DNA of 7,878 nt from IMG/VR virus record IMGVR_UViG_2654587726_000001, one strand, 5' to 3'. Of this stretch, positions 1,139-2,532 are shown in pieces. Below the pieces are notes generated by a model that saw only the letters and a program-made list of their open reading frames with translations, did not search any database and was not told where the DNA came from. This stretch comes from a virus. Lineage: Monodnaviria > Loebvirae > Hofneiviricota > Faserviricetes > Tubulavirales > Inoviridae. Position numbers and translations under genes: made by a program. The first letter of the stretch is position 1; the number at the start of each line of letters is the position of its first letter.

Positions 1139-1336
1139 ATGTCTCACGAGATTGTTTACTACGATTACATTCCTGATTATGGCGTTAATGCCTGCATTGA
1201 TGGTGAATGGGATTTCTTCAGCTCATTTAATGAGCTGTTCATTGCATGCGTTGAAACAATCGGGGATGACTTCGTTCTGGTATCTGTTGCACTGCCTTCT
1301 GGTTCATGGGTCGGTTATCAGGAGACTGTTTGCTAA
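1139..1336 (+). CDS. Hypothetical small acidic protein (65 aa, no Lys/Arg, 11 Asp/Glu), translationally coupled to rep
   Basis: [68 protein letters not shown]; stop TAA 1334-1336 overlaps ATG 1336-1338 of rep (TAATG). Third-position T bias matches the other phage genes. No clear Shine-Dalgarno upstream. Confidence 0.4.
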
Positions 1337-2532
1337 TGAAGCCGGTTCAGGAAACCATACGTCACGTCTTCATAGACCATCTTGCTTTCACTTTTCCAAT
1401 AAGTGAGCTTAAGAATCTTGAGACTTTCGACGGTGCTATTCAGTTCTGGCGTAAGTATGGTTCCATGCCGCGTCTGCGTGATTTTCTGCCCGGTCGTGAT
1501 GCCTTCTTTCGTGATGTGGTTGATCCTGAAACTCGATGCTGGGTTCCTGATGATGCGGAATCAGATAAAATTTGTAGCGGTATTTCTGGCGATAGAGCGT
1601 TAATTGAACATCAAATTGAACAATATAATCAGGCTGTTCAGGCTGCGTATTTGCATCGCCTTAAAATCTGGTTATCCAGTGCTTTCGGTTTGAGTATGGG
1701 ACCTGAACGGGACCGTGGTGGCTTTAATTATCGTTGTTCTGCGCCATTATTTTCTGATGATGGCGGTAATAATCTACATGGCTTTGCATTCTGGGGTGGA
1801 AACAATAACACGGTATATATACAGATTTCCGGTCTGGGATGTGCTCATGTATTTAGTGGTACTGAGCCTCAGGATGTATTCAAATGGTTGAAACATCTGA
1901 ATATTACTACGCTCAAGCGTATTGATTTGGCTGTTGATGATTTCGATGGTGTTTTTACATGCGATGCAGCTGTTCGCGATCATCGTTCTGGCGCGTTTTA
2001 TAGTGGTAAGGGGCCGCGTCCGGGTTTTTCGAATTCCTGTAAGTGGGATGGTCGCGCATTATTAAAGCAGGAGATGTACACGTTTGGTTCCCGGCAATCG
2101 CGTGTTTACTGGCGTATCTATAATAAAGCGCTTGAACAAAAAGTCAGTGGTACGTGGAATCGTTCTGAGGTCGAGCTTAAAGGGGTTCCTGTTGATGTAC
2201 TGCTTGATATTGCCGGTTATTTTACGGGATTGTGTGATTATGCTGCACAAATCAATCCAGCTAAACCACGCAAGTTTAATCCTTATCGTCCTGACTTAGC
2301 GGACGAAAAAAAGGCAATTAATGCACTGGAACATAATGTTCACTGGTTACGTAAGCAGTGCTCTAAATCTGTTGCAAAGTTATTTCATCTTCTCGGTAAT
2401 GATTATGAGGCGGTATTTACTGCCATTGTCAGACATGAGGATATACAGGATGAGAAGATTAGATTTTCAATACCGGATGTTTATCGGCAGGTGATTGCAG
2501 GTAAATTCTATAATCGTTCAGTTCCATTTTAA
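1336..2532 (+). CDS. Replication initiation protein (rolling-circle initiator, pII/RstA-like)
   Basis: About 400-aa ORF in the first position of the plus-strand operon, directly before the ssDNA-binding and coat genes. Start taken as ATG 1336 (AGGAG at 1320-1324; TAATG overlap with upstream ORF); the track start at 1306 is in frame and would add 10 aa. Function inferred from position and size; a possible catalytic Tyr motif (RIYNKALEQ) is tentative. Confidence 0.75.

Follow-up and report, generated by a model that had tools for sequence, protein, structure and literature searches.

What is encoded directly ahead of the replication initiator gene of this prophage, and does its product have a part in replication? 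The window, by which we mean the entire 7,878-base stretch of DNA analysed here, has the look of a complete filamentous (inovirus) prophage from Escherichia coli. Its genes run from a divergent repressor-like gene through a promoter-like site, a 65-aa open reading frame (ORF) and a Rep_trans initiator gene to the coat, g3p-like, Zot-like and secretin genes. The original prediction held that the 65-aa ORF is translated, is coupled to the initiator gene rep, and encodes an acidic protein that could act either as a DNA mimic or as a modulator of Rep.

The small gene and its prophage

Several E. coli chromosomes match bases 1000-1500 of the window at 100% identity, and strain E24377A matches them at 97%; in E24377A the prophage segment adjoins hipB and a truncated hipA. 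The same segment is present in 30 of 5,426 complete genomes, usually in at least two copies per genome (median 2). A dif-like XerC/XerD site at 204-235 consists of GGTGCACATAA (XerC arm), an 11-nt spacer and TTATGTTGAA (XerD arm), and none of 200 shuffles gave a match. Together, the dif-like site, the hipBA-adjacent location in E24377A and the median of two copies per genome point to Xer-mediated (IMEX, CTXphi-like) integration, probably with tandem arrays. Inspection by eye also revealed a G+C- and purine-rich stretch at 540-720, between the dif-like site and the repressor gene, in a phage that is elsewhere T-rich; this stretch is partly conserved in the related loci L004, L007 and L010 and is a candidate origin or attP-associated region. 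Among the structural genes, an 18-nt tandem repeat at 4657-4876 (12 copies, 96% match) codes for a (GSGTGT)n linker in the 543-aa g3p-like protein (3616-5247). A GC-rich hairpin seen by eye at 3325-3348 (GGGCGG ATATT CCGCCC, then a T run), just 3’ of the major-coat-like gene (3058-3306), looks like an intrinsic terminator attenuating transcription into the downstream structural genes.

The divergent gene (789-1001, minus strand) encodes a 70-aa basic protein (phrog_2503; net charge +5) that appears by eye to be a ribbon-helix-helix-like repressor of an immunity module. A sigma-70-like promoter for the operon of the small gene and rep was recognised by consensus match at 1076-1105 on the plus strand (TTTACA, 18 nt, TATGAT), and both hexamers are kept in relatives. 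They are flanked by two copies of the palindrome-containing GCGCATGCG, at 1065-1073 and 1108-1116 (region 1063-1119, no strand assigned). The repeats are kept in L007, L010 and L004, and a different repeat is found in L118, whose repressor allele differs; these candidate operators are probably those of the divergent 70-aa repressor. Also kept in L007, L010 and L004 is a weak Shine-Dalgarno-like GGTG at 1130-1133 (plus strand), located 5 nt 5’ of the small gene’s start codon, whose role is suggested by its sequence.

The small gene occupies 1139-1336 on the plus strand, from an ATG at 1139 to a TAA at 1334-1336. Its product was correctly described in the original prediction as strongly acidic and free of Lys and Arg: the sequence contains six Asp, five Glu, one His and neither basic residue, for a net charge of -11. 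Given 9.4% Lys+Arg in the other proteins of the window, the chance of finding none in 65 residues is about 0.002 (P), and this complete absence is an allele-specific extreme, since relatives contain 0-6 basic residues. The predicted third-position T bias is likewise present, at 0.44 in the ORF’s frame compared to 0.32 in the other two frames; other phage genes range from 0.40 to 0.57, with the secretin-like last gene of the window (0.32) as an exception.

In E24377A the protein is annotated in RefSeq as a hypothetical protein (WP_000017777.1), and it matches phrog_3104, a family with no assigned function, over its whole length (E = 8.4e-25; residues 1-65 on profile positions 1-69 of 69). All 22 diverse relatives examined match the same family. 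Searches of the protein against Pfam, NCBIfam and PADLOC models gave no match, and the 22 relatives showed no recurring Pfam family. Word-indexed searching brought up close enteric relatives at 75-98% identity, a large set from Vibrio and, at 49% identity, an 84-aa E. coli variant (P0007). When 1.84 billion representative proteins were searched with a profile, only 14 clusters emerged, all of 57-84 aa, indicating a narrow family without fused versions. Conserved columns are Y7, Y8, D9, P12, V16, G22, E/D23, W24, D25, S29, L33, L47, V48, Y60 and E62. Matches on plasmids were only to inovirus replicative forms filed as plasmids, and DNA matches to Vibrio phages were rejected as evidence for the small ORF because they fall inside rep. 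The RefSeq annotation, the full-length homologues and the strong purifying selection described below place this ORF beyond chance, and we conclude that it is a real protein gene.

The family may be wider than HMMER shows. A probable, highly divergent member is the ORF at 888-1160 of L063, which overlaps rep and carries an IYYxD...W...S...L pattern, although its match to the family profile reaches only E = 0.086.

The junction with rep

The initiator gene (1336-2532, plus strand; phrog_453) encodes a 398-aa Rep_trans protein (PF02486, E = 1.8e-21). As had been predicted, the stop codon of the small ORF and the ATG of rep at 1336 have one base in common, within TAATG at 1334-1338. The junction as a whole spans 1320-1338 on the plus strand and includes AGGAG (1320-1324), which sits inside the final codons of the small gene and is the sole Shine-Dalgarno-like motif for rep. 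Because of the stop/start overlap and the internal Shine-Dalgarno sequence, we infer translational coupling from the small gene to rep. The original prediction had called for the overlap to be checked in related phages, and in every readable locus (enterobacterial, Vibrio and metagenomic inoviruses) the family member lies directly 5’ of rep and overlaps its start. The overlap amounts to a single base (TAATG or TGATG) in the enteric group and to 4, 8, 10, 11 or 17 nt in other lineages, and in all lineages examined the final small-ORF codons contain a Shine-Dalgarno for rep, either GGAG or GGGGG. Much of the conservation of the C-terminal ‘GVFD’ or ‘GYQE’ is imposed by the Shine-Dalgarno and ATG that it overlaps.

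The placement at the head of the operon proved less general. The small gene comes first in the window, but one or two ORFs precede it in Vibrio f237-type phages and in L012 and L016; the invariant position is directly before rep. In one f237-type phage (L002, Vibrio phage vB_Vipa36), a second acidic ORF of 102 aa is located at 574-879, between the promoter region and the homologue of the small ORF, and the extra ORFs of L012 and L016 are likewise small and lie ahead of the homologue.

Three other readings of the frame were considered and rejected. Initiation of rep at an upstream in-frame ATG (1306) would make the ORF a mere rep leader; however, there is no Shine-Dalgarno sequence at that codon, RefSeq and the relatives place the rep start at the overlap, and the additional N-terminal stretch shows no conservation. 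A regulatory leader RNA in place of a protein is contradicted by folding, as neither the junction nor the whole leader folds better than shuffled sequences (z values of 0.6 and -1.1), and by an intact frame with a dN/dS of ~0.07. A programmed frameshift fusing the ORF to Rep was also discarded: no slippery heptamer was seen by eye in the 1270-1336 two-frame overlap, and no fused protein occurs among the 1.84 billion representatives.

Evolution with the Rep_trans initiator

We surveyed 80 IMG/VR loci encoding relatives of the Rep_trans initiator, 78 of which had enough upstream sequence. The small family lies directly before rep in 54 of the 78, with the divergent copy of L063 in addition. Presence is uniform within Rep clusters formed at 65% identity, the family being found in 11 of 14 at E <= 0.001 (12 with L063 included). 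A PE002A-like Vibrio clade of 23 loci and L057 are wholly without the small gene, and the absence from whole Rep_trans clades means that the protein cannot be an obligatory cofactor.

Where the two genes occur together, they are constrained to the same degree. Over 414 pairs from 60 unique loci, the median dN/dS of the small gene was 0.066 (IQR 0.049-0.092) and that of rep 0.061, values that are indistinguishable; in the window’s own lineage the ranges were 0.13-0.27 for the small gene and 0.04-0.25 for rep. Identity between the small proteins rises and falls with that between the Rep proteins (Pearson r = 0.98 over 1,711 pairs), and none of these 1,711 pairs has one of the two genes kept and the other replaced. 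The repressor side behaves differently. The window and L004 are ~100% identical over 800-1165, from the repressor through the intergenic region into the ORF as far as its ninth codon, and diverge beyond that point. One and the same small-ORF body accompanies repressor alleles of both 71 aa and 66 aa, and the repressor is >98% identical across loci whose small proteins are 49-100% identical. Co-divergence with rep, combined with free recombination on the repressor side, shows by comparison of these loci that the small gene belongs to the replication module and not to the immunity module.

A natural swap of the initiator was available for comparison. The E. coli prophages L004-L006, L024-L026 and L108-L123 encode, in place of Rep_trans, a 666-aa Phage_GPA initiator that is not homologous to it. 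At the nucleotide level, the repressor and promoter of these GPA-type E. coli inoviruses are ~100% identical to those of the window. A recombination breakpoint falls around codon 9 of the small ORF, and some of the phages retain a diverged small ORF (81-84 aa) that overlaps or abuts the GPA start. The small ORF is present in only 6 of 15 GPA loci; the GPA rep genes of the 15 are mostly 96-98% identical to that of L004 (two are 91% and 78% identical). The other loci among the 15 pass from different immunity regions or an IS insertion straight into rep; an IS transposase gene lies just 5’ of rep in L110, L112, L115 and L122. Mostly near-identical GPA reps stand behind at least five different immunity regions.

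The GPA-linked small copies have a dN/dS of ~0.4-1.2, compared to 0.07-0.12 for the adjacent GPA rep. Their non-synonymous excess, which rests on small counts of 10-14 substitutions, gives P = 0.0005 if omega is 0.066 and is marginal (P ~0.06) against the enteric omega of 0.2. Overall, the small gene is tightly constrained and consistently kept when linked to Rep_trans, and is patchy and near-neutral when linked to GPA. This contrast suggests that its function is tied to Rep_trans, and it is the strongest argument for such a tie, though an indirect one.

Predicted fold and proposed role

AlphaFold2, supplied with a 22-sequence alignment, modelled the 65-aa protein with a mean pLDDT of 81.7 and values near 90 in the core (residues 1-50). 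The predicted topology is beta(4-11), beta(15-20), beta(23-27), alpha(30-41) and beta(45-49), followed by a low-confidence tail (51-65) that coincides with the rep translation-initiation region. A separate model of a 27%-identical Vibrio homologue (pLDDT 89.1) has the same topology plus a C-terminal helix. Foldseek gave no significant match in PDB or BFVD; the best, weak fold match of the predicted beta-beta-beta-alpha-beta core was to the HicB-type antitoxin domain, and no known DNA mimic was among the structural matches listed. As modelled, this is a common kind of small protein-binding motif with no diagnostic value.

The N-terminal domain of HicB-type antitoxins and the stand-alone TTHA1013 (PDB 3k6q, 1wv8) are likewise small, have a protein-binding role and show a beta-beta-beta-alpha-beta (partial RNase H-like) topology, to which the predicted core bears a weak resemblance. 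In type II toxin-antitoxin systems a small acidic protein is encoded first and its gene overlaps that of a larger nucleic-acid enzyme, which is also the layout of the small gene and rep. The Pfam models HicB, HicB_lk_antitox and UPF0150 did not match the 65-aa protein or its 22 relatives at E <= 10, and an adjacent HicA toxin gene was not found; the overlapping downstream gene is Rep_trans or Phage_GPA in every locus.

We tentatively propose, giving it somewhat less than an even chance, that the small protein is translated together with Rep and binds a protein, serving the Rep_trans module as an accessory or modulator. It would be a small, soluble, acidic, non-DNA-binding component of the replication module in Rep_trans-type temperate inoviruses. 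The small gene would be transcribed from the repressor-controlled promoter, and ribosomes terminating at 1334-1336 would reinitiate at the rep start (1336), so that both proteins are made in a fixed ratio. The folded core might then bind a protein, in the first place Rep itself or a host factor that Rep uses. In doing so it could act as a stoichiometric modulator, either an antitoxin-like buffer or threshold-setter for the chromosome-nicking initiator or an assembly or chaperone factor. The effect on Rep could be inhibitory or activating, a positive chaperone or assembly role being equally compatible. The weak HicB-like fold and the antitoxin-toxin-like layout suggest a threshold buffer for a chromosome-nicking enzyme in lysogens.

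The interpretation in the original prediction is partly supported. Of the two functions it offered, constraint and co-divergence favour modulation of Rep, and anti-restriction mimicry is unsupported; tuning of replication is the more likely of the two. More broadly, the protein could be an anti-defence DNA mimic, made together with Rep, that blocks a host nuclease, restriction or repair enzyme attacking the replicative form or rolling-circle intermediates. Ocr, ArdA and AcrIIC5 resemble the small protein in size, low pI, mobile-element origin and presumed early expression, and its strongly acidic character is like that of Ocr and ArdA (its net charge is -11, and values in the family range from -4 to -13, with few basic residues throughout). 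The small gene would be expressed with the first replication gene, and in some lineages it has stayed intact behind the non-homologous GPA initiator. Searching PDB sequences with a profile also gave one marginal match, over 41 residues, to the dsDNA-mimic anti-CRISPR AcrIIC5 (E = 0.034, 18 bits; PMC9976890). That match is not backed by the fold searches. AcrIIC5 is a 130-aa protein with a four-stranded sheet flanked by five helices, and the small protein is half that size and does not share the fold. To our knowledge, the hosts have no type II-C Cas9, the target of AcrIIC5. Family-model searches and the structural matches listed showed no sequence or fold similarity to Ocr or ArdA, so that nothing beyond the marginal AcrIIC5 match links the protein to known mimics, and the gene behaves as a core, Rep-linked gene rather than as a variable counter-defence gene. 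We therefore consider a DNA mimic unlikely. A more specific form, in which a DNA- or nucleic-acid-mimicking inhibitor, possibly a distant relative of AcrIIC5, is hard-wired into the Rep_trans module and shields the replicative form or rolling-circle intermediates, is improbable.

The adjoining divergent repressor and operator region in the window raise the question of whether the small protein is instead an early switch protein, inactivating the small repressor as RstC of RS1 does or locking in the productive state. An acidic protein could pair with the basic repressor, and in GPA-type E. coli phages the presence of the small gene varies with the immunity-region allele. This role is nevertheless quite improbable, as the same ORF body accompanies two repressor alleles with recombination breakpoints at its 5’ end, and the protein co-diverges with Rep and not with the near-invariant repressor. 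Repressors of unrelated types (62, 67, 118 and 122 aa, the last a DUF3693 protein) also accompany the family, and the small gene is not promoter-proximal in the Vibrio, L012 and L016 phages. The junction itself would fit a translational-coupling leader that delivers ribosomes to the rep start and sets the Rep level, the peptide being of minor importance. The tap leader of IncFII plasmids and the repY leaders of IncI and IncB plasmids are short ORFs of this kind, which end at or over the rep start and carry or unmask its ribosome-binding site; their peptides are ~24-30 aa and not conserved in sequence, and control is exerted by antisense RNA and a pseudoknot. The small ORF likewise ends over the rep start and holds the rep ribosome-binding site, an arrangement kept in all lineages, and the demands of that site largely account for its C-terminal conservation. 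Unlike tap and repY, however, it encodes a 65-aa domain, predicted to be folded, whose sequence is kept across E. coli and Vibrio phages, and the rep start is not sequestered by any significant RNA structure. The whole 50-residue core has a confident predicted fold and is under purifying selection as strong as that on rep, with conserved residues far from the junction, and related phages translate rep without any leader ORF. A leader function alone is very unlikely.

The preferred reading, a protein modulator of the Rep_trans module, has parallels elsewhere. Small phage proteins that are encoded within or beside replication genes and adjust initiator activity or RF synthesis include Cnr of P4 and pX of Ff, an in-frame fragment of pII. 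In Pf4, deletion of RepG/PA0717 abolishes production of the RF, and RepG is Arg-rich and presumably DNA-binding (PMC12328805). The small protein described here is like pX, Cnr and RepG in being a small protein beside replication genes and has no sequence relationship to any of them; it is strongly acidic, whereas RepG is Arg-rich. If it is a modulator, it would represent a chemically and structurally different variant of such proteins. We know of no earlier protein regulator of the Rep_trans initiator family, and a stoichiometric modulator of Rep, if true, would be the first and would explain why a chromosome-nicking enzyme is harmless in lysogens. A DNA mimic, if that were true, would be the first dedicated counter-defence gene described for filamentous phages and would open the topic of counter-defence there.

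The sequence family is already catalogued, in PHROG and among the hypothetical proteins of RefSeq and GenBank, and the gene itself is no discovery. The catalogue (phrog_3104, with phrog_2419) holds the sequence family but no function, context or fold, and the literature yielded no description of the family or its context. Newly described here are its tight linkage to Rep_trans, its pattern of selection, its predicted fold and the contrast with GPA-linked copies, for which we found no earlier description. Temperate dif-integrating inoviruses, among them CTXphi, f237 and the E. coli prophages, shape virulence and genome dynamics, yet how their Rep_trans initiators are controlled is poorly understood. 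The small gene is as conserved as rep in the majority of Rep_trans inoviruses from enterobacteria and Vibrio, and it was missed in the classic Vibrio phage annotations: the GenBank entries for Vf33, VfO3K6 and VfO4K68, like the record of Vf12, carry no annotation for it. In the records of Vf33, Vf12, VfO3K6 and L124 (VfO4K68), the start of Vpf402 (rep) is set upstream of that given for f237 ORF1 in newer records, and the rep start is probably mis-annotated in those classic records.
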